DNA from: an uncultured Cellvibrio sp.
GTDB taxonomy: Bacteria > Pseudomonadota > Gammaproteobacteria > Pseudomonadales > Cellvibrionaceae
Assembly: GCA_965650675.1 (NCBI GenBank)
Contig: CBFGPN010000003.1
Coordinates: 4 to 64,003 of the forward strand
Direction of reading: 5' to 3'
DNA length: 64,000 bases
Both the position numbers and the translations under genes were made by a program. Each line of letters opens with the position of its first letter. The first letter of the stretch is position 1. Shown here piece by piece: positions 348 to 9,122 of the stretch. The notes beneath the pieces are model-generated. The model made no database searches. It saw only the letters and a program-made list of their open reading frames with translations, and was not told where the DNA came from.

Positions 348-1781
348 TCACGAAGGCAAACAAAAACGCACTTCCAATCCCTGTGGATTTACAGGCAGGA
401 AATCAAGTTGCCCCTGATGTATCTCGATAATACGCGCCACGATTGAAAGGCCGAGGCCGCTACCGGTTTGGTCGGCTGATTTTTGATCAGGTGATTGCCT
501 GAAAAAACGTTTTCCCAGTGATCCCAGTTTTTCTTTGGTAATACCGGGGCCATGATCAATAACACTGATTTGAATGTGTGTATTCAATTTAACGACTTTA
601 AGAAAAATACGAGCACCTTTGGGGCTGTATCGACAGGCATTATCGATAAGATTACGCAATAGTACAGACATTAATAACGGATGTGCGTAAATCCTGGTGT
701 GTTTAATCTCTTCGTCAAATTCTATTTGATGGTTTAACAACGCAAATTCATATGTATGGGTTTGTATAAATCCAGGCTCATCCTGAATCGATTGAATTAA
801 TACATCGAATAAATTGATATGGGATTTTTCACCTATGGCTTTGGGGTCTAGCTTTGCCAGTGTCAGCAATTGTTGCACCAGTCTATTGCTGCGGTTAATC
901 CCCGCCAATATTTTTTCCAGTTGTATTTGGCTTTGTTCAAGGGTTTTACTTTGCAATCCGAGTTGGGTGTTGAGTTTTAATGCAGAAAGTGGCGTGCGTA
1001 ATTCATGTGCGACATCGCCTAAAAACCGGCGTTCTATATCCACCGCATTGGCAACCCGGCTCATTAATTGATTAATAGCGGTTACGACTGGCGCTAATTC
1101 TTCCGGAGTTGAGTTTTCAATATGAATGGATTCCAGTTTGTCCAGATGTCTATCTTCCAGTTGTTTTGAAATTTGATGTAAAGGTTTTAATCCGCGACGA
1201 ATCACCCAAATTAAACACGCGCTCATCAATATGGCAGCAAAAAATAATCCACTGAGAGAACTCAGCAGGGTTTTTTTAACCAGTTCTTCACGAATGTCCT
1301 CACGCTCTGCCAATACAATCCATAAATTATTTTGTGGCATATATTGGGTAAAGATATGCCAATTGTGTTGTTGATAATGGGTAACGAAATAACCGCTTTC
1401 TAACGGTGATAACAGGTACAAAGGCGCAGTGGGCGTTTTTACCAATAAATTTCCTTCTTCATCCCAGAGTTGCACCGCTAATTTATTTTCATAACCATGG
1501 CCTGTGGAATGACGATCATCGTCATCAATATTGGTAAAATTATTCAGTGCTGTGAGTAAAGTGGAATTTAGTTTGTCGTAATCTATCTCATCAATAGGTC
1601 GATTTAAAAAGCTTTGCAAGATACGACTGGTTTGAGCCATCTGTGCATCATAAAGTTCATCTACTTCCTGAACTGTCACTTGTTGTGTAATCCATACAGT
1701 TAACAAGATGCTAAAACCCAGAAGGCTGAACAAGCTGACAAGAAAAAATCGCTTTAAAGACGATAGCAGCCACTGTTTCAT
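348..1781 (-). CDS. Sensor histidine kinase, QseC/PmrB(BasS)-like
   Basis: Two TM segments, periplasmic 'EVDELYDAQM' segment, HAMP, H-box DVAHELRTPL, N-box LLRNLIDNACRYS, G-boxes DHGPGI and GSGLGLSIV. Confidence 0.9.
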   Translation of the reverse strand: MKQWLLSSLKRFFLVSLFSLLGFSILLTVWITQQVTVQEVDELYDAQMAQTSRILQSFLNRPIDEIDYDKLNSTLLTALNNFTNIDDDDRHSTGHGYENKLAVQLWDEEGNLLVKTPTAPLYLLSPLESGYFVTHYQQHNWHIFTQYMPQNNLWIVLAEREDIREELVKKTLLSSLSGLFFAAILMSACLIWVIRRGLKPLHQISKQLEDRHLDKLESIHIENSTPEELAPVVTAINQLMSRVANAVDIERRFLGDVAHELRTPLSALKLNTQLGLQSKTLEQSQIQLEKILAGINRSNRLVQQLLTLAKLDPKAIGEKSHINLFDVLIQSIQDEPGFIQTHTYEFALLNHQIEFDEEIKHTRIYAHPLLMSVLLRNLIDNACRYSPKGARIFLKVVKLNTHIQISVIDHGPGITKEKLGSLGKRFFRQSPDQKSADQTGSGLGLSIVARIIEIHQGQLDFLPVNPQGLEVRFCLPS

Positions 1782-2458
1782 TATGGATTCTGTGTGTTGG
1801 ATTGTTTATCGACAACATAGCCAAATCCGCGCAGGGTGCGAATAAAATCTGGCGCAATTTTTTTTCGCAAATGATGTATATGCACTTCGAGCGCATTACT
1901 TTCTACATCGTCACACCAGGTATATAGACTTTGCTCCAGTTGTTCCCGACTTAAAACCCGACCGGGTGTCTCTAACAATTTCATCAGGATCATAAATTCA
2001 CGACGGGAGAGGTTAACACTTTTATCCTTGTAAAAAATTTCCTGGGTTTCAGGATTAATACGTAAATCGCCATGAATCAGTTGATTGTCTGCGCGGCCAG
2101 TGGCACGGCGTGAAATTGCTCTCAATCTGGCGAGTAATTCATCCAGTTCAAATGGTTTTAATAAATAATCATCAGCACCGGCATCAAGGCCTGAAATTTT
2201 ATCCAATAATGTATCGCGTGCAGTGAGTATTAATGTAGGAATAGTATTTTTTTCACGACGGATTTTTTTCAGAAAGCTAATGCCATCCATACCAGGCAAA
2301 CCGACATCCAATATCATTAAGTCAAAATTTTCATGTTTAATGGCGCGATAGGCCGATTCACTGTCTTTAGTCCAGTCAACGGCATAATGGTGCAGTGTCA
2401 TGGCTTCTTGCAGCGCTTCACCGAGCATTAAATCGTCTTCAACCAATAATAATCTCAT
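1781..2458 (-). CDS. OmpR-family response regulator, QseB/PmrA(BasR)-like
   Basis: MRLLLVEDD receiver start, phospho-Asp in ILDVGLP, LTARD, KPF, winged-helix end IRTLRGFGY. Start set to ATG 2458, which overlaps the apbE stop as ATGA. Confidence 0.92.
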   Translation of the reverse strand: MRLLLVEDDLMLGEALQEAMTLHHYAVDWTKDSESAYRAIKHENFDLMILDVGLPGMDGISFLKKIRREKNTIPTLILTARDTLLDKISGLDAGADDYLLKPFELDELLARLRAISRRATGRADNQLIHGDLRINPETQEIFYKDKSVNLSRREFMILMKLLETPGRVLSREQLEQSLYTWCDDVESNALEVHIHHLRKKIAPDFIRTLRGFGYVVDKQSNTQNP

Positions 2459-3381
2459 CGTAAACACCAGTGGATAGCTTGTTGGTTCTGCAAAAAATGT
2501 TCAGCCTTCTCACCTTGTAACAGTGCCAGTGTTGACAAGGTACCCGCCTGAACACAAGTGGAACCCGCCACAGTGACAGATTTGGGGGCATTCTCTATAG
2601 GGTAGCCTGTTTTCGGGTTAAGAATATGGCCATAACGTTTTCCATTGCGCAATAAAAAACGTTTGGCGTCACCGCTGGTTGCCAGTGCCCCTGCAGATAT
2701 TTCCAAAATTTTATTGGGTTCATATTGTTTATTTCGACTTTCTGTTTTTTTATCTGGAGCTTCTATACCGACTTGCCAGGGTTTTTGATTTTTTTGTGCA
2801 CCACTGACGGCCAAATCCCCGCCAAAATTAATTAATATCGGTAGATCGGTTTGTTCCATAACCAGATGCAAGGCTTTATCTACAGCATATTCTTTACCGA
2901 TTCCCCCCAAATCAATTTCCATGCCCGTCATTAGTGTTAAAAACGGTTTTTGCCAATGGACTTTGTCCCATCCAACCAAAGGTAAAATCGCATCTATATC
3001 CGGTTGCGCAGGAATTTTATCCGAGCCATCAAAAACCCATACGCGGCGCAACACGCCTGATGTAATGTCGAAAAGTCCATCGCTTAATTGATAACAGAGT
3101 TGTGCGTAATCAATTAATGCGCAGGTTTCATCGTCCAGCTCAATTGTTTTTCCGTTTGCGCTATTAATGGCGTGAATAGTATTGTCGCTGCGATATCGAC
3201 TGAATTTTTCTTCAATGCGTTTGGTTTCTGTTTGCGCTATTTGTGCCAATGAATAAGCCAGGCTGGGGTCATCGGTTTCTATTAAAATTTCACACAGGCT
3301 GGCCATGGCACGAAATTGACCGAGGAAGTGTTGGCCTTTTGGAATTAAGGTTAATTCATTTTGTAAGCTGGATTTTTTCAT
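2455..3381 (-). CDS. apbE: FAD:protein FMN transferase (ApbE family)
   Basis: Motifs FSRYRSDN, GLFDITSG, IDLGGIGKEYAVD, INFGGD, ALATSGD, YGHILNPKTGYP. Confidence 0.92.
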   Translation of the reverse strand: MKKSSLQNELTLIPKGQHFLGQFRAMASLCEILIETDDPSLAYSLAQIAQTETKRIEEKFSRYRSDNTIHAINSANGKTIELDDETCALIDYAQLCYQLSDGLFDITSGVLRRVWVFDGSDKIPAQPDIDAILPLVGWDKVHWQKPFLTLMTGMEIDLGGIGKEYAVDKALHLVMEQTDLPILINFGGDLAVSGAQKNQKPWQVGIEAPDKKTESRNKQYEPNKILEISAGALATSGDAKRFLLRNGKRYGHILNPKTGYPIENAPKSVTVAGSTCVQAGTLSTLALLQGEKAEHFLQNQQAIHWCLR

Positions 3382-3458
3382 GAATATATATTATTGCAAT
3401 CCGTCGATATGATGTCATTTGCAAAATATATCCTATTCGGGAATTGCTTGCCTTAAAT

Positions 3459-3481
3459 AAAAAAGCCCGCACAAAGCGGGC
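3459..3481 (-). terminator. Probable intrinsic terminator after the DUF3570 gene
   Basis: The minus strand reads GCCCGC-TTTGT-GCGGGC followed by a T-run. Confidence 0.65.
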
Positions 3482-3494
3482 AAAAAAGGCCTAA

Positions 3495-4832
3495 CTAAAA
3501 TTCGAACGAATAGCCAACAGAAATGGTCATGGCTTCCATATCAGGCGCCAAATCCAGACCTGCTAATTCGGGTAGATCTGAACGATTCACCTCATAAGAC
3601 TGGGTATATTGCTCAACACGAATATTGAATTCACTGGTTCGGCTGAATTCAATTCCATACTTGAGGCCAAATGTTATTCCACTTAATTCTGCCAGACGTG
3701 GATCAGCTGATGCATAATCAAGATTAATACTGCTACCTGTTACCTGTTGCGATTGCAAAAGATACAAATTGTAAAAATCTGCAGCTGTTTGTTGGTACCA
3801 ACGCACATGAGGTTCAAAATACATATTACCGGCAAATTGATAGCGATAGCGTAAATCCAGCGTATGAGAATCTATTCCCCAATCATCGGTGTAATAACGG
3901 TACGAGAAATCAATCACATCTTCTGTCAAATGGATTTTATTTGCCCAATACAAACTGTGTCTGGTGCGCGAATCAGGTCTGCTTTCATAGGCATACCAAT
4001 TATCGATATCTGCTGATGGGTGATTGACAATATTGCCTTGATCATCAAGCACCGAGAGTATTTTGTAGGGATCAGTGTGGTAACCACTTGAAGAGCCATA
4101 AGAATAATTTAATTGTGTTACCCAGTGGCGATTCATCACTTGTGTTACACCCAGCAAAACATCCAGCACATTTTTGCTTTCATCGGATCGTGTTTGTTTT
4201 AAATCTTCGTTTTCTTCACCGTAGACCATCGCGGTTAATTCAACCGGTGTACCACCAACGGGATTAATTTGATCGGCTTCATATCCCACACCGAAAGACA
4301 AAGTGGTGTTTTTGTTATTGAAGTCGCGTGCAATCGCTGCATTCAAAGCCACAGAGGTAAAGTCATACTCTTTTGAAAAATTTCCGCCAACCGAAATTTT
4401 ATTGCGTTCTCCCCAAGGCTGTTCCCAGCCAAGATTGAGTGCTGCGCGTGTATCTTTAAAACTGTCATCAAGCGGCGTTTCACCGGCATCAGCGGTGTAA
4501 GAATTTTCACCTGAAGGGCCTGTAAATGTTTGCGGGTTATTGGATGCTACGGCACCATTGGGTGATGCACCGGTTAAAGAGTCCAGTGTCATTTTCATTG
4601 AAAAAATGCGTTCATCACCCAAATCTTTTTTCAATGCGACGATTGGTTCAATCGCTGTCACACGGCTATCCGATTCGGAATAAACCAGCAGCGATGAATC
4701 CACTTGCCAGGGAGATTCTTTTGCATGGCTGGTGGCAGACACTAAATTCACACTGGCGGCAGCGAGTAATAATGCAATATTGCCCGCAGACGTTTTGTGA
4801 TTACTTTTGGTTGGTGGGGTGATTAGTTGCAT
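3495..4832 (-). CDS. DUF3570 family outer-membrane beta-barrel protein, candidate ApbE substrate
   Basis: Signal peptide, DSLTGASPNG motif, alternating beta-strand pattern, C-terminal beta-signal ISVGYSFEF, and position between DUF4266 and apbE. Confidence 0.85.
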   Translation of the reverse strand: MQLITPPTKSNHKTSAGNIALLLAAASVNLVSATSHAKESPWQVDSSLLVYSESDSRVTAIEPIVALKKDLGDERIFSMKMTLDSLTGASPNGAVASNNPQTFTGPSGENSYTADAGETPLDDSFKDTRAALNLGWEQPWGERNKISVGGNFSKEYDFTSVALNAAIARDFNNKNTTLSFGVGYEADQINPVGGTPVELTAMVYGEENEDLKQTRSDESKNVLDVLLGVTQVMNRHWVTQLNYSYGSSSGYHTDPYKILSVLDDQGNIVNHPSADIDNWYAYESRPDSRTRHSLYWANKIHLTEDVIDFSYRYYTDDWGIDSHTLDLRYRYQFAGNMYFEPHVRWYQQTAADFYNLYLLQSQQVTGSSINLDYASADPRLAELSGITFGLKYGIEFSRTSEFNIRVEQYTQSYEVNRSDLPELAGLDLAPDMEAMTISVGYSFEF

Positions 4833-5053
4833 CCGCAGCCACCTCCGCCAAAACCTCTACCACCGGTAGACGCTTCTTTACTGAAATAAGTGTGATCATC
4901 AGAAGCTGACTCTAATGGGTAAGCATTAAGTTGCATGGATTTTTTTGCGAGTAAATCTCGTTCCCAGGGTTTGACACCTAAATTTGAACAGCCTGATAAC
5001 AGGCTGACGCCGATTATCAGGCTAATCATTAAAATCATTCTTCGATCAAGCAT
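4823..5053 (-). CDS. DUF4266 family small lipoprotein
   Basis: Lipobox LSGC, VKPWER motif, HTYFSKEASTGG, and C-terminal GGGGCGCN. Confidence 0.88.
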   Translation of the reverse strand: MLDRRMILMISLIIGVSLLSGCSNLGVKPWERDLLAKKSMQLNAYPLESASDDHTYFSKEASTGGRGFGGGGCGCN

Positions 5054-5075
5054 AAATTACCCCGAAGGTTGAAAA

Positions 5076-5522
5076 TTATTGTTGGTTAATAAGTTGTTGG
5101 ATTTCTGATTCGTAAATCGATTTTTTCTTCTCATGAAAGCCCAGATGTTTAAATACAATTTTCCCCTGCCGATCCAGAATAAAAGAACTTGGCATAGCAG
5201 CTACTTGATACTCGGTTGCCAAATCACCTTTAGCATCAAAAATAATTTTAAATTGAGGGGATGTTTCTTTGATAAATTGATCGGCCAAGGTTTTTTCCTG
5301 ATCAACGTTGACTCCAATTACTACCAAATCTTTTCCGTATTTTTGATGAATTTCATTCATCCATGGAAAAGATTTTCGACAAGGAATACACCATGAGGCC
5401 CAGAAATCCACGTAGACCACTTTGCCTTTGTATTGTTCAATGTTTAATTCGTTGCTAGCCAATACTAAATGCGAGTAAGTTGCAACAATGATCATGCAAC
5501 AGAATTTGAGAATGCTTTTCAT
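5076..5522 (-). CDS. TlpA-family thiol-disulfide oxidoreductase
   Basis: Signal peptide, KGKVVYVDFWASWCIPC, and cis-Pro motif AMPSSFILDRQG. Confidence 0.92.
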   Translation of the reverse strand: MKSILKFCCMIIVATYSHLVLASNELNIEQYKGKVVYVDFWASWCIPCRKSFPWMNEIHQKYGKDLVVIGVNVDQEKTLADQFIKETSPQFKIIFDAKGDLATEYQVAAMPSSFILDRQGKIVFKHLGFHEKKKSIYESEIQQLINQQ

Positions 5523-5566
5523 AAAACCTCTGCTCAGTTTATTTATTACTACTAAAGCAAACCTAA

Positions 5567-5583
5567 CTTAAGAATAGCTTAAG
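5567..5583. promoter_or_regulatory. PmrA/BasR-type direct-repeat box 1
   Basis: CTTAAG-AATAG-CTTAAG matches YTTAAK-N5-YTTAAK and lies in the divergent tlpA/PAP2 intergenic region. Confidence 0.7.
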
Positions 5584-5618
5584 GCTCTTCATAAAAATCA
5601 ACATCTGATAAAAATTCA

Positions 5619-5635
5619 CTTAAGTTTCCCTTAAT
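5619..5635. promoter_or_regulatory. PmrA/BasR-type direct-repeat box 2
   Basis: CTTAAG-TTTCC-CTTAAT, the same consensus, 52 bp from box 1. Confidence 0.7.
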
Positions 5636-5715
5636 AAAGGGATTTTAACGTTAGTTCATGAATTTCATATCTTGTTGGCTTTAATTTTTTATCCGAATTG
5701 TCAGGTTTGTTGATT

Positions 5716-6465
5716 ATGGAAATATCAGGGCTGAGTTACCAATCCAAAGTTTCTCCGATGGTTAAGCCTGGCTATCAATATGTTGGAGCCGTCAGGGTAT
5801 GGATATTGGCTGCATTGTTTTTTTCCTTTGTAAATGAATATTTCAGCTTTGATCGAAAACTTGCAGATCTGATTTATCTGACTGGCAGCCATTCCTGGGC
5901 GCTGCAAAAAAATTATTGGTTACAACAAGTTATTCACAATGGCGGGAGAAATGTTTCCATTTTTATGGAAGTACTTGTCTTATCCCTCTACCTCGGTAGC
6001 TTCGCTTTCAACTATTTTCGACATTTTCGAAAGATTTTTTTATATCTGTTTTTATCTGTGCTTATCAGTACAAGTCTGGTCGGCATTTTTAAACACTACT
6101 TGCGCTTGTCTTGTCCTTGGGAATTTTCAATTTACGGTGGGCAATTGGAGTATCTCAGTCGTATTTCCCAACTATGGGTGGCCAACGGTGCAGGATGTTT
6201 TCCGGCTGGACATTCCAGTGCAGGTTATTCCTGGATTTGTCTGTTTTTTGTTGGAAGTTATTTAAAAAGTAATTGGCGTTGGTATGGTCTGTTTATTCCT
6301 TTATTTGCAGGACTGGTATTTGGTTTTGCCCAGCAATTACGTGGCGCACATTTTCTTTCTGATGATATTTGGACATTAACTATTTGCGGGATAACGGCTG
6401 TTTTACTTTATCGGAAAATGTTGATTGTTGATGCCAAAATTAACCCATTCATAACAGGGCGTTGA
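5716..6465 (+). CDS. PAP2-family membrane phosphatase
   Basis: Motifs RLSCPW, CFPAGHSSAG and QQLRGAHFLSD, with multiple TM helices. Start set to ATG 5716 (ORF track 5698). Confidence 0.85.
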   Translation: MEISGLSYQSKVSPMVKPGYQYVGAVRVWILAALFFSFVNEYFSFDRKLADLIYLTGSHSWALQKNYWLQQVIHNGGRNVSIFMEVLVLSLYLGSFAFNYFRHFRKIFLYLFLSVLISTSLVGIFKHYLRLSCPWEFSIYGGQLEYLSRISQLWVANGAGCFPAGHSSAGYSWICLFFVGSYLKSNWRWYGLFIPLFAGLVFGFAQQLRGAHFLSDDIWTLTICGITAVLLYRKMLIVDAKINPFITGR

Positions 6466-6466
6466 T

Positions 6467-8125
6467 ATGTTATTGGTTTCCAAATTGACGCAACTATCTG
6501 TACCTGACTTCAAATTTGAAATGTCATCTGTAAGATTGTCTGCACTCTGTTCGTTGTTAACCGTTATTTTCTACAATAAAGCATTTTTTACTGCCGCTAT
6601 TGGTTTGGTTGAACATTGGAATTTTGAGAATTCGTTTTTAATTATTGGATTGACTGTTTTTCTGTTTACCCTGAATTTTATTTTATTTTTGTTATTGGTT
6701 ATCCCATGGGCATTTCGGGTGATATTTATCGGGATCTTTATCTGTGCAGCTATAGCTCAATATTTTATGTTGTCTTATGGAATTTTGATTCATCAGACTA
6801 TGGTACAAAACCTGATGGAAACCGATACGGCTGAAATATCCGGTTTATTGTCTGTCAACTTATTAATTGAATTTATTCTACTGGGTGTCATTCCATCATT
6901 ATTCATTTTGCGAACGTCAATTGTTTATAAAAGTATTGGTTCGGAAATCTGGCTTAGGGTTCGTTACATCACCCTTGGCGTATTGATTATATTCAGCATA
7001 TTGTTAATGAATACTGCCGGTTTTTCTTCTTTTTTTCGTGAGCATAAAAATGTTCGCCAAATGGCAAATCCACTCAACTTTATATACGCAAGCATCGGTT
7101 ATTTTTCAAAGAATAGCGCACCAGTTATCATTCAGCCTTTAGGCAAGGACGCTCATTTATCACCACTGGGTAATAGTTTGCGCAAACCTTTGTTGGTTGT
7201 GTTGGTGGTGGGTGAGACTGCCAGAGCAGACCATTTTTCAATCAACGGATATTCGCGACCCACTACACCTTTGATGGCTAACGAAAATATTATTAATTTT
7301 TCATCGGTTGTTTCGTGTGGTACTGAAACTGCTGTATCAGTACCTTGTATGATGTCCTTGCTCACAAGAAAAGGTTATTCAAATGAAAAGGCCAAACACC
7401 AGGAATCTGTTTTGGATATATTGAGCCATGCCGGAATTGGTGTTTTTTGGCGTGATAATAATTCCAGCTGTAAAGGTGCATGCGACCGTCTGGCTTATGA
7501 GAATATCCAAAAATGGAAATTACCGGAATTGTGTAACGACCGTGAGTGTTTTGATAAGGCATTATTATTTGAGTTGGATAAAAAATTAATGACGATGCAA
7601 TCTTCATCCGGGCATAAGTTAATTGTATTGCATCAAAAGGGTAGTCATGGACCGGATTATTATCACCGTTATCCCGAACAAGAGGAATTTTTTAAGCCGG
7701 TATGTAAAACCAACGAGTTACAAGATTGCTCCAGTGAAGAAATTATTAATGCTTTTGATAATACTATTCGCTATACCGATCAGTTTTTGGCGGCGACTAT
7801 TGATTGGTTAAAACTCAGGAGTCCGGATTACGATACCGCAATGATTTATCTTTCTGATCATGGTGAATCTTTAGGTGAGAATCACCTTTATTTACATGGT
7901 ATGCCTTATTTGATAGCACCGGATGTGCAGAAAAAAATCCCTTTTTTATTTTGGTTATCACCTGGATTTGAGCGTGATAACAATATCAATCGACAATGTT
8001 TACTTGATATGTCATCAAGAGAATTTTCCCAGGACAATTTGTCCCATACGTTAATGGGATTTATGAATGTATTGAGTCAAATTTATAATAGCCAATTGGA
8101 TATATTGGCGACTTGTCGTCATTGA
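6467..8125 (+). CDS. eptA: Phosphoethanolamine-lipid A transferase (EptA/PmrC family)
   Basis: N-terminal membrane domain, VVGETARAD, catalytic Thr region SCGTETAVSVPCM, GSHGPDYY, YDTAMIYLSDHGESLGE, YLHG. Confidence 0.92.
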   Translation: MLLVSKLTQLSVPDFKFEMSSVRLSALCSLLTVIFYNKAFFTAAIGLVEHWNFENSFLIIGLTVFLFTLNFILFLLLVIPWAFRVIFIGIFICAAIAQYFMLSYGILIHQTMVQNLMETDTAEISGLLSVNLLIEFILLGVIPSLFILRTSIVYKSIGSEIWLRVRYITLGVLIIFSILLMNTAGFSSFFREHKNVRQMANPLNFIYASIGYFSKNSAPVIIQPLGKDAHLSPLGNSLRKPLLVVLVVGETARADHFSINGYSRPTTPLMANENIINFSSVVSCGTETAVSVPCMMSLLTRKGYSNEKAKHQESVLDILSHAGIGVFWRDNNSSCKGACDRLAYENIQKWKLPELCNDRECFDKALLFELDKKLMTMQSSSGHKLIVLHQKGSHGPDYYHRYPEQEEFFKPVCKTNELQDCSSEEIINAFDNTIRYTDQFLAATIDWLKLRSPDYDTAMIYLSDHGESLGENHLYLHGMPYLIAPDVQKKIPFLFWLSPGFERDNNINRQCLLDMSSREFSQDNLSHTLMGFMNVLSQIYNSQLDILATCRH

Positions 8126-8161: not shown

Positions 8162-8512
8162 TTATTCATCCCGTGTATTGACTGAATCAACGACACCGTT
8201 TTTAAAAGTTATACCAAGAATACGTTTGGCAACAACTTTTTCCGAGTTAATCGAGAATAGAAAAATAAATCTTTTATCCGATTTCATTTTGCGCTCGTTA
8301 ACGTATTCATATATCTCTGTGCCATCTTGATTTGACTGGATTTTATCCGGCATTCCCAGGTTAGCAATAATCCATTGTTTGTCAGTTTTGCCTGTTTCGA
8401 TTTGTACCATCTTCTGTTTGTCGATATTATTGCTTTCGTTTTGATAAGTATTTTGCGTATACACACAAGCAGTCATAACGATACAAGCGAGAATCACAAT
8501 TAGTTTTTTCAT
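8162..8512 (-). CDS. Lipoprotein, SmpA/OmlA(BamE)-like domain
   Basis: Lipobox MTAC and the pattern 'IETGKTDKQWIIANLGMPD...YEY...ITFKNGVV'. Confidence 0.6.
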   Translation of the reverse strand: MKKLIVILACIVMTACVYTQNTYQNESNNIDKQKMVQIETGKTDKQWIIANLGMPDKIQSNQDGTEIYEYVNERKMKSDKRFIFLFSINSEKVVAKRILGITFKNGVVDSVNTRDE

Positions 8513-8687
8513 AGGTCTACCTCAAAGGTTAATAAAAGCAGCTCGAACGGAAAAAGCGGTTGCACAGTAGTTAAGACGATAAGCTTCTTGAGTTGGATTC
8601 AAGTAAAACTAATATTAGTTATGGATAACTGATTCCTGGCTGAATGACGCAAATCAACTGGAGAGCAACTATCAGGCTGAACCATTT

Positions 8688-9122
8688 ATGAATGTAAAAA
8701 TAAAATCAACAAACTGGGAACAAGACCAGCAAGCTTTGTACATAATCCGTCGAATAGTGTTTATCGAAGAACAGCATGTGGATGTTGCTGACGAGTGGGA
8801 TGATAAAGATGAAACTGCTATTCACTTTTTGGTTGAAACCACCCGGCAACAGGCTGTCGCTTGCGCACGCTTATTAATAGAAGGGGATCTTTACCATATA
8901 GGCCGTGTTGCCGTGCTCAAAGAATATCGCAATCAAAAAATTGGTCGGCAGTTAATGCAATTCATTTTAGATTGGTGCCACCAACAAAACCCCGAAAACA
9001 AAATTTATCTACACGCACAAACCAGCCGTGTAGAGTTTTATGAATATTTGGGTTTTGTTACAAAGGGTGAAGTGTTTTTGGATGCAGGGATTGATCACAT
9101 AGAAATGTGGTACAAACCTTGA
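8688..9122 (+). CDS. GNAT N-acetyltransferase (ElaA/YjcF-like)
   Basis: Motifs RRIVFIEEQ, IGRVAVLKEYRNQKIG, LHAQ, FYEYLGF, FLDAGIDHIEM. Confidence 0.9.
   Translation: MNVKIKSTNWEQDQQALYIIRRIVFIEEQHVDVADEWDDKDETAIHFLVETTRQQAVACARLLIEGDLYHIGRVAVLKEYRNQKIGRQLMQFILDWCHQQNPENKIYLHAQTSRVEFYEYLGFVTKGEVFLDAGIDHIEMWYKP

Follow-up and report, generated by a model that had tools for sequence, protein, structure and literature searches.

Gene organization of the locus

We analysed a 64,000-nt stretch of DNA from an uncultured Cellvibrio sp. (hereafter the window), which is part of a 93%-complete metagenome-assembled genome (MAG) of 318 contigs and 4.16 Mb; its nearest named relatives are Cellvibrio and Cellvibrionaceae MAGs. 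The subject of this work is the locus at positions 348-8125 of the window, where a flavinylation gene cluster with its own two-component sensor pair lies divergent from eptA, a gene for the addition of phosphoethanolamine (pEtN) to lipid A, and where two PmrA-type boxes occupy the region between them. Surveyed loci, genomes and contigs are denoted by L, G and C, respectively, and G000 is the genome of the window.

Pfam assignments confirmed the eight genes that the initial annotation had placed here. Six of them are on the minus strand. Beginning at the divergent region, they encode a TlpA/ResA-like periplasmic thioredoxin with a WCIPC motif (tlpA, 5076-5522; Redoxin, PF08534; AhpC-TSA, PF00578; and Thioredoxin), a small DUF4266 lipoprotein with a C-terminal CxC motif (4823-5053; PF14086, E 1e-22), a DUF3570 protein that is predicted to be an outer-membrane beta-barrel and a substrate of ApbE (3495-4832; PF12094, E 2e-137), an ApbE-family FAD:protein flavin mononucleotide (FMN) transferase without a signal peptide (2455-3381; Pfam ApbE over residues 28-301, E 7e-69), an OmpR/PhoB-type response regulator (RR) of the PmrA/QseB group (1781-2458; Response_reg and Trans_reg_C) and a QseC/PmrB-like sensor histidine kinase (HK) with two transmembrane segments (348-1781; HisKA, HATPase_c and 2CSK_N). 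The longest open reading frame (ORF) of the RR begins at GTG 2467; ATG 2458, which matches the starts of the orthologues, is the likely start instead. The other two genes are on the plus strand and encode a membrane phosphatase of the PAP2 superfamily (5698-6465, from a TTG start, with an alternative start at ATG 5716; Pfam PAP2, E 7e-11) and an EptA-family phosphoethanolamine--lipid A transferase (6467-8125; Pfam EptA_B_N and Sulfatase, and NCBIfam NF028537).

The region between tlpA and the PAP2 gene is 28% GC. The two YTTAAK-N5-YTTAAK boxes that had been reported in it are present, in the form CTTAAG-N5-CTTAAK. The proximal box, CTTAAG-N5-CTTAAG (CTTAAGAATAGCTTAAG), spans positions 5567-5583 and lies 44 bp 5' of the tlpA start codon. 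The distal box, CTTAAG-N5-CTTAAT (CTTAAGTTTCCCTTAAT), spans positions 5619-5635 on the plus strand, facing PAP2-eptA, and lies 63 bp 5' of the TTG start of the PAP2 gene.

The six co-oriented genes had been described as a run with overlapping or abutting boundaries. This holds for the named overlaps, which are 10 nt for DUF4266/DUF3570, ATGA for apbE/RR (with the RR read from ATG 2458) and one base for RR/HK (TAATG), but not for the DUF3570/apbE junction, where there is a 113-nt gap with a hairpin and a promoter-like site. The hairpin is of the intrinsic-terminator type, is located 3' of the DUF3570 stop codon (3455-3481, minus strand) and consists of GCCCGC-TTTGT-GCGGGC followed by the T-run TTTTTTATTT. 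Among the loci in which this gap is covered, the three closest (L004, L005 and L011) likewise have a hairpin with a T-run there; the stems of L005 and L011 differ in sequence. The promoter-like site, just 5' of apbE (3390-3418, minus strand), is a sigma-70-like match that we count as weak evidence (ATGACA-17-AATAAT, with 10 of 12 matching and a TG upstream), and its -10 element stops 8 nt short of the apbE ATG. Because a terminator-like hairpin fills the gap in the window and in the closest loci, the six genes probably form two transcription units, tlpA-DUF4266-DUF3570 and apbE-RR-HK. A single six-gene operon was disfavoured by the same hairpin, kept across the window, L004, L005 and L011. Just 3' of eptA, an ORF of 116 aa (8162-8512, minus strand; GC 0.345) gave no Pfam match.

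Conservation of the boxes with the sensor pair

We surveyed 80 loci, with one genome per species. The order TlpA-DUF4266-DUF3570-ApbE-RR-HK recurred in Cellvibrionaceae, Moraxellaceae (Agitococcus, Fluviicoccus and Acinetobacter), Colwellia, Alcanivoracaceae, Oceanospirillaceae and others, with RR identities of 45-93% across these six-gene loci. Betaproteobacterial loci had the order DUF4266-DUF3570-ApbE-TlpA, and the adjacent sensor pair was usually missing from them.

The boxes were found together with the sensor pair. When an adjacent RR-HK pair was combined with a divergent upstream gene, 24 of the 25 loci had at least two boxes, and the 25th had two by a wider scan. Exactly one box was present in all four loci that had the adjacent pair and no divergent gene, and no box was present in 18 of the 26 loci without an adjacent pair. 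A box equivalent to the proximal one sat 5' of tlpA in nearly all RR-HK-carrying loci; the motif recurred at this place in dozens of loci from several families, GC-rich ones included. A count of hexamers that presupposed no pattern gave CTTAAG as the most enriched one, with occurrences in 26 of 29 dereplicated upstream regions versus 31 of 1921 background windows (54-fold); the upstream regions of loci without the sensor pair contained it in 7 of 26 cases. G061 and L011 have exactly the same proximal box as the window; that of L005, within a conserved block, departs from it at one base. Because the boxes co-occur with the RR-HK pair across families, they are very likely the operators of the cluster RR, as predicted from these comparisons. 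We found no published description of an RR-HK pair and boxes conserved with the DUF3570 cluster.

The box pattern had three strand matches in the window, against 0.43 expected, and exact matches were found at 12 positions of the 4.16-Mb genome; among the matches listed, the two boxes at the locus, 52 bp apart, were the only adjacent pair on one contig. A third good box (TTTAAGATTCGCTTAAG) was noticed on contig C46 of the same genome (14368-14384; about 869-885 of L084), 66 bp 5' of the gene for a 677-aa membrane protein with a sulfatase fold. This protein weakly resembles phosphoglycerol transferases of the OpgB/LtaS type; it may act in envelope modification as well and belong to the same regulon.

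The position of the distal box was compared over 27 loci. Its distance to the start of the divergent gene had a median of 56 bp (range 39-101, standard deviation 13), and the 63 bp of the window is typical; its distance to the tlpA start had a median of 127 bp (range 93-279, standard deviation 52). Because the position of the distal box tracks the start of the divergent gene and not that of tlpA, the geometry favours an assignment of this box to the divergent gene, with one box per promoter arm. L005, a Cellvibrio MAG with a cluster RR that is 85% identical to that of the window, retains the proximal block almost base for base and has neither a divergent gene nor a distal box. In about 26 loci, the divergent gene encoded a full-length DsbD with DsbD_N, DsbD_TM and thioredoxin domains. 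Genes for cytochrome b561 (L012, 2152-2700, minus strand), FeoB (L040, 7021-9108, minus strand, and L042) and a HEPN-domain protein (L082, 1379-2128, minus strand) were also observed in the divergent slot behind the distal box.

The sensor pair had initially been called a PmrAB/QseBC-like switch, which is right as to its family and wrong if read as orthology. Among solved structures, 8jo2 and 4s04, whose chains carry the name BasR, came closest to the RR (E about 1e-55). Neither protein reached an NCBIfam cut-off: the RR scored 250 bits with the PmrA model (cut-off 330) and 211 bits with the QseB model (cut-off 345), and the HK scored 230 bits with QseC (cut-off 475) and 195 bits with PmrB (cut-off 314), being an equivalog of neither. 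In a tree of 62 sequences, the RR fell inside a 39-row clade of DUF3570-linked regulators, with BasR and QseB of E. coli outside it. An identity of the RR as a PmrA or QseB orthologue was ruled out by the equivalog cut-offs and the tree.

The DNA-contacting residues of Klebsiella pneumoniae PmrA have been described, together with its pbgP box, CTTAAT-N5-CCTAAG, which is made of two hexamers with a 5-bp spacer (PMC3973317). The recognition helix of the window RR (SNALEVHIHHLRKK) retains four of these residues (Asn, both His and Arg) and has Ser in place of Thr187. On the side of the sensor, the periplasmic 2CSK_N domain of the HK has no cysteines, and the periplasmic residues E..EL.DA, H.YE.K and AER.D.R.E were conserved among 29 cluster-linked kinases. 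A paralogous PmrA-like pair is encoded on contig C172 of the same genome (L086, 1377-6883), with an RR that is 47% identical and has a near-identical recognition helix. Its neighbours, namely a haem-oxygenase-like gene and genes for a tetratricopeptide-repeat (TPR) protein, a cupredoxin and the iron permease FTR1, suggest that it is an iron-related sensor. No box was found at the C172 locus except one chance-level match inside a gene.

The flavinylation module

The cluster matches the ApbE/DUF3570 flavinylation set, with ApbE, DUF3570, DUF4266 and a secreted thioredoxin all present. TlpA carries a signal peptide and the WCIPC motif, and its matches to the NCBIfam ResA, DsbE and TlpA-like models were all below cut-off. 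As read from the translations, DUF4266 has the lipobox LLSGC and the C-terminus GCGCN, and DUF3570 has a signal peptide, a TGAS motif at residues 87-90 and a C-terminal YSFEF. The TGAS motif was invariant in 56 homologues. A second site, at residues 104-108, reads TGPSG with Pro for Ala, so that there is one canonical site only. The AlphaFold model of DUF3570, built with 56 homologues, was confident and almost all beta-strand (predicted local distance difference test 85.7, predicted template-modelling score 0.81), and all 50 of the Foldseek matches listed for it were outer-membrane barrels (FadL, BcsC, AlgE, OmpG and TonB-dependent receptors), with template-modelling scores of 0.4-0.47 and none close. 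With its signal peptide, a closed barrel predicted with confidence and an aromatic residue at the C-terminus, DUF3570 has the features of an outer-membrane beta-barrel. In this model, TGAS closes strand 3 and begins a long loop (residues 89-125) that also bears TGPSG. We infer from the model that the loop would be on the outer or the lumen side, provided that the N-terminus is periplasmic.

Clusters with genes for ApbE and DUF3570 along with thioredoxin-like and DUF4266 genes have been reported (Meheust, Huang, Rivera-Lugo, Banfield and Light, eLife 2021; PMC8238504); of 543 such clusters, 227 had DsbD and 316 did not, and 25 VIT1-linked clusters were also reported. The same study demonstrated ApbE-dependent flavinylation at two [S/T]GA[S/T] sites of the DUF3570 protein of Chlorobium luteolum, the one member for which covalent FMN is shown, observed that an insoluble, signal-less DUF3570 was flavinylated in E. 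coli and put forward a hybrid thiol/flavin relay that DsbD would feed. The description of DUF3570 in the initial annotation, as an ApbE substrate found with thioredoxin-like proteins and DsbD, agrees with this paper. The path that the annotation had drawn from TlpA through DUF4266 to FMN-DUF3570 is the same as the published model, by analogy with which electrons would flow along it. It was also correct that the window contains no DsbD; 316 DsbD-less clusters were already published, and the genome has a single DsbD copy on contig C72. Remnants of dsbD were sought in the window and in L011, and none were found.

The window and the published clusters have in common the four gene families, [S/T]GA[S/T] in DUF3570 and the terminal CxC in DUF4266. 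The window differs in having the PmrA-family pair with its boxes, PAP2-eptA in the dsbD slot, TGPS as the second motif and a signal-less ApbE; its thioredoxin best matches PF08534 and PF00578, whereas that of the published clusters is PF13899. No regulators, operators or eptA are discussed in PMC8238504. The other literature that we found on DUF3570 or DUF4266 was sparse, and none of it dealt with regulation or eptA.

In ApbE, some 25 hydrophilic residues precede the first conserved strand, and the same was seen in some 60 orthologues. The ApbE of a second DUF3570 cluster in this genome, on C183, is likewise signal-less. The two ApbE paralogues outside DUF3570 clusters (on C75 and C232) served as controls from the same genome, one with a lipoprotein signal and the other with a Sec signal. 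A periplasmic ApbE was ruled out by the signal-less N-termini, judged against these controls. Because ApbE lacks an export signal, the simple picture of periplasmic flavinylation fails as drawn. A signal-less ApbE implies either that an exported barrel is flavinylated in the cytoplasm or that an undescribed export route exists. Judging from the N-termini, ApbE most likely acts on DUF3570 inside the cytoplasm, while the precursor is still unfolded and prior to its export by Sec; the flavinylation reported in E. coli for a DUF3570 that was insoluble and had no signal is in keeping with this.

The genome has three DUF3570 paralogues. The cluster on C183 (L087, 1616-4423) is a second full TlpA-DUF4266-DUF3570-ApbE set without a sensor pair, located beside a Ser/Thr kinase fused to a formylglycine-generating enzyme (FGE)-sulfatase domain, and no boxes were found at it. 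The third paralogue, on C23 (L003/L088), is distant and has its own TlpA-like gene.

eptA in the dsbD slot and its predicted control

The EptA protein passed the NCBIfam NF028537 model with 626.5 bits (cut-off 500) and did not reach the E. coli EptA equivalog (568.5 bits, cut-off 660). Its gene is a single copy in the 93%-complete genome, as judged by tblastn. The PAP2 protein scored 66.7 bits with the NCBIfam lipid A phosphatase model (cut-off 275), so that its assignment is to the PAP2 superfamily only.

PAP2-eptA is divergent from tlpA both in the window and in L011, the two PAP2 proteins being 43% identical. In G061, the closest relative, tlpA, both boxes at the 52-bp spacing, a PAP2 remnant and an eptA that is 90% identical lie together on one small contig; at this locus (L126, G061:C318, 553-881), PAP2 is cut down to its last 44 residues, and the boxes and eptA are intact. 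The PAP2 gene is dispensable for the arrangement, because G061 has the remnant yet intact boxes and eptA. In L009 and L010, the divergent arm consists of a stand-alone DsbD_N (DsbD-alpha) gene and then eptA. These two DsbD_N genes (L009, 3929-4495, minus strand; L010, about 8628-9053, minus strand) are both intact, have their own signal peptides, are 46% identical to each other and lie between the boxes and eptA; they may encode a functional periplasmic thiol carrier that is co-transcribed with eptA. What is newly seen here is that eptA sits in the dsbD arm of a conserved divergent promoter in a small Cellvibrio lineage. Its linkage to the cluster is real and recurrent in this one lineage and is absent from most relatives.

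In the EptA tree, the five linked copies grouped with the unlinked one of G030 in a single clade (100/100 support). The branching of EptA broadly matched the RR tree for these loci, an agreement that fits long residence with later losses. Within the same regulator clade, the divergent partner was dsbD in L013 and cytochrome b561 in L012, and there was no divergent gene in L005 and L008; each of these four genomes has eptA somewhere. In a sample of 60 other Cellvibrionaceae genomes, eptA was present in 9 and DUF3570 in 45. Because the comparative geometry favours one box per divergent arm, eptA is probably co-induced with the flavin module.

Apart from the published flavinylation clusters, three known systems resemble parts of the locus. 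PmrAB/BasRS of Enterobacteriaceae, with eptA/pmrC and the PmrA box, shares with it an OmpR-type RR, four of the five PmrA DNA contacts, hexamer repeats with a 5-bp spacer and a pEtN transferase as the target, which is a predicted one here. In E. coli, eptA-basR-basS is one co-oriented unit, whereas eptA of the window is divergent from the pair with four genes between; moreover, the conserved target of the window-type RR would be the flavin/thiol module and dsbD, not lipopolysaccharide (LPS) genes. In Neisseria meningitidis, dsbD is under the positive control of MisR/MisS, which is also needed for the phosphoethanolamine decoration of lipooligosaccharide (LOS), and a review concludes that the endotoxin pathway and the pathway of protein oxidation and isomerisation are co-regulated (PMC3526765). 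This is a precedent for one two-component system over dsbD and LPS pEtN. It differs from the locus in having another regulator family member, no DUF3570 or ApbE and no shared divergent promoter, and its phosphoethanolamine effect is on the inner core and does not proceed via transcription of the transferases. The third is mcr-1 with pap2, which is likewise a pair of PAP2 phosphatase and EptA-family transferase; such a pair recurs in the window, L011, G058, G062 and G063. Here, however, PAP2 comes first and is far below the cut-off for 'PAP2 near MCR-1', and the pair is chromosomal and no mobile resistance element.

The observation made in the initial annotation stands, and its interpretation is supported in part. 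We consider it reasonably probable, from the comparisons above, that the locus is a known flavinylation module provided with its own PmrA/QseB-family pair and a divergent box switch, which would act on PAP2-eptA here and on dsbD elsewhere. Several points weigh against this reading. The combined eptA-redox regulon that had been envisaged is not a general unit: linkage of eptA to the cluster is rare, being found in 3 of the 80 surveyed loci plus the window and G061 (five genomes); most related genomes lack a link between the two, which at large scale is what the initial annotation had named as a refutation, and the usual partner is dsbD. The surveyed loci are not independent, and many are from Moraxellaceae. 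A scan of positions 5523-5697 found no canonical sigma-70 promoter 3' of either box, although this is expected for activator-dependent promoters.

The remaining points concern the regulator that acts on eptA. According to the strongest alternative, eptA would be mainly under a different PmrA-like regulator, either the C172 paralogue or one encoded in the unassembled 7% of the genome, which would recognise boxes of this type; the adjacency of eptA to the DUF3570 cluster would then be positional, with no regulon in common. G030, of the same genus, has an eptA with a TTTAAG-N5-CTTAAG box 44 bp upstream and neither a type-1 DUF3570 cluster nor such an RR; its best RR is the C172 orthologue. The genome of L011 retains both boxes and has no cluster RR and no regulator more than 51% identical. 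In G062 and G063, a second PAP2-eptA is located about 4 kb from a different PmrA-like RR-HK pair whose RR is 51% identical to that of the window (L141, G062:C3; L142, G063:C7); because of the second PAP2-eptA pair, the genome of L011 holds two eptA copies. Recognition helices are nearly identical among the cluster RR, its paralogues, BasR and QseB. G030 and L011 show that another PmrA-like paralogue can serve such boxes, and the window genome has the C172 paralogue. On the other hand, the distal box is kept only with a divergent gene and at a fixed distance, in loci whose sole nearby regulator is the cluster RR. The C172 locus is itself without a box, and neither an RR of the 51% type nor a second eptA was found in the genome of the window. 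In G058, which has no DUF3570, a box separates PAP2-eptA from a divergent HK-RR pair, and the RR of this pair falls in the DUF3570-linked clade, on a long branch of unsettled placement. Control by a paralogue and control by the cluster RR are not mutually exclusive, as cross-talk is possible. Overall, we consider it unlikely that a different regulator is the main one; control of eptA by the adjacent cluster RR is the most likely reading of the comparisons, and cross-talk is its serious rival.

A second alternative is that PAP2-eptA is a horizontally acquired cassette in a former dsbD position, in which case the distal box would be what is left of a dsbD promoter in decay, and eptA would have a promoter of its own. 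The GC content of PAP2-eptA is indeed low (0.373 versus 0.426 for the genome, which places it at the 2nd percentile among 2.4-kb windows), the Cellvibrionaceae sample indicated a patchy distribution of EptA in the family, and the identities between the window and L011 are 55% for EptA and 43% for PAP2, far below those for DUF3570 (80%) and TlpA (69%). However, each of the five loci with linked eptA has an intact distal box despite EptA identities of only 52-56%, and between the window and G061 its half-sites are kept while the spacer differs. L005, which is without a divergent gene, has lost the distal box; the EptA tree broadly follows the RR tree, as expected of long residence; and in L009 and L010 eptA stands behind an intact, signal-peptide-bearing DsbD_N gene downstream of the box. 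We regard a relic box as improbable, more so than control by another regulator. Lastly, chance matches of an AT-rich motif in intergenic DNA of 28% GC are hardly credible as the source of the two boxes, given the counts in the window and the genome and the 54-fold enrichment and recurrence 5' of tlpA in loci of several families, some of them GC-rich.

With the cluster RR as the regulator, the switch might work as follows. An envelope signal would activate the HK, and the phosphorylated RR would bind the CTTAAG-N5-CTTAAK repeats, one of which lies about 40-60 bp 5' of each start codon. The proximal box would drive tlpA-DUF4266-DUF3570, that is, the CxxC thioredoxin, the CxC lipoprotein and the barrel, whose FMN would be covalently linked to the loop that follows strand 3. 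The distal box would drive the opposite gene, which is PAP2-eptA in the window and dsbD, encoding the inner-membrane electron donor, in most genomes. One envelope signal would thus induce both the thiol/flavin module and the addition of phosphoethanolamine to lipid A. Behind the terminator-like hairpin, apbE-RR-HK would have basal expression, and read-through would provide feedback. ApbE would modify DUF3570 in the cytoplasm, ahead of folding and Sec export, and the lone DsbD of the genome, encoded on C72, would supply the reducing power. As for the inducing signal, a metal cation such as Fe3+ is a guess, weakly suggested by the PmrB-like ancestry of the HK, FeoB in two of the divergent slots and the 25 VIT1-linked clusters. 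The complete chain, in which a PmrA-family switch over a relay of DsbD, TlpA, DUF4266 and a flavin barrel loaded with FMN before export has captured eptA in a Cellvibrio lineage, so that one cue, perhaps Fe3+ or another cation, leads to both lipid A remodelling and redox activity, is put forward as a speculative model that is unlikely to hold in full.

The locus is from an uncultured environmental Cellvibrio-like bacterium and has no bearing on clinical resistance. The DUF3570 module is widespread, as it was found in three-quarters of the other Cellvibrionaceae genomes sampled (45/60), and the 2021 survey counted hundreds of such clusters. The signal-less ApbE raises the question of whether outer-membrane proteins are flavinylated before export. 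More than once, eptA has come to stand behind this operator in the slot of dsbD, and in two genomes it shares the arm with a DsbD-alpha gene. This arrangement suggests that the module answers insults to the outer membrane like those that PmrA-type remodelling of lipid A responds to, for example cations, metals or cationic peptides. A dedicated sensor with a recognisable operator would provide a handle on the signal, the regulon and the switching of this module.

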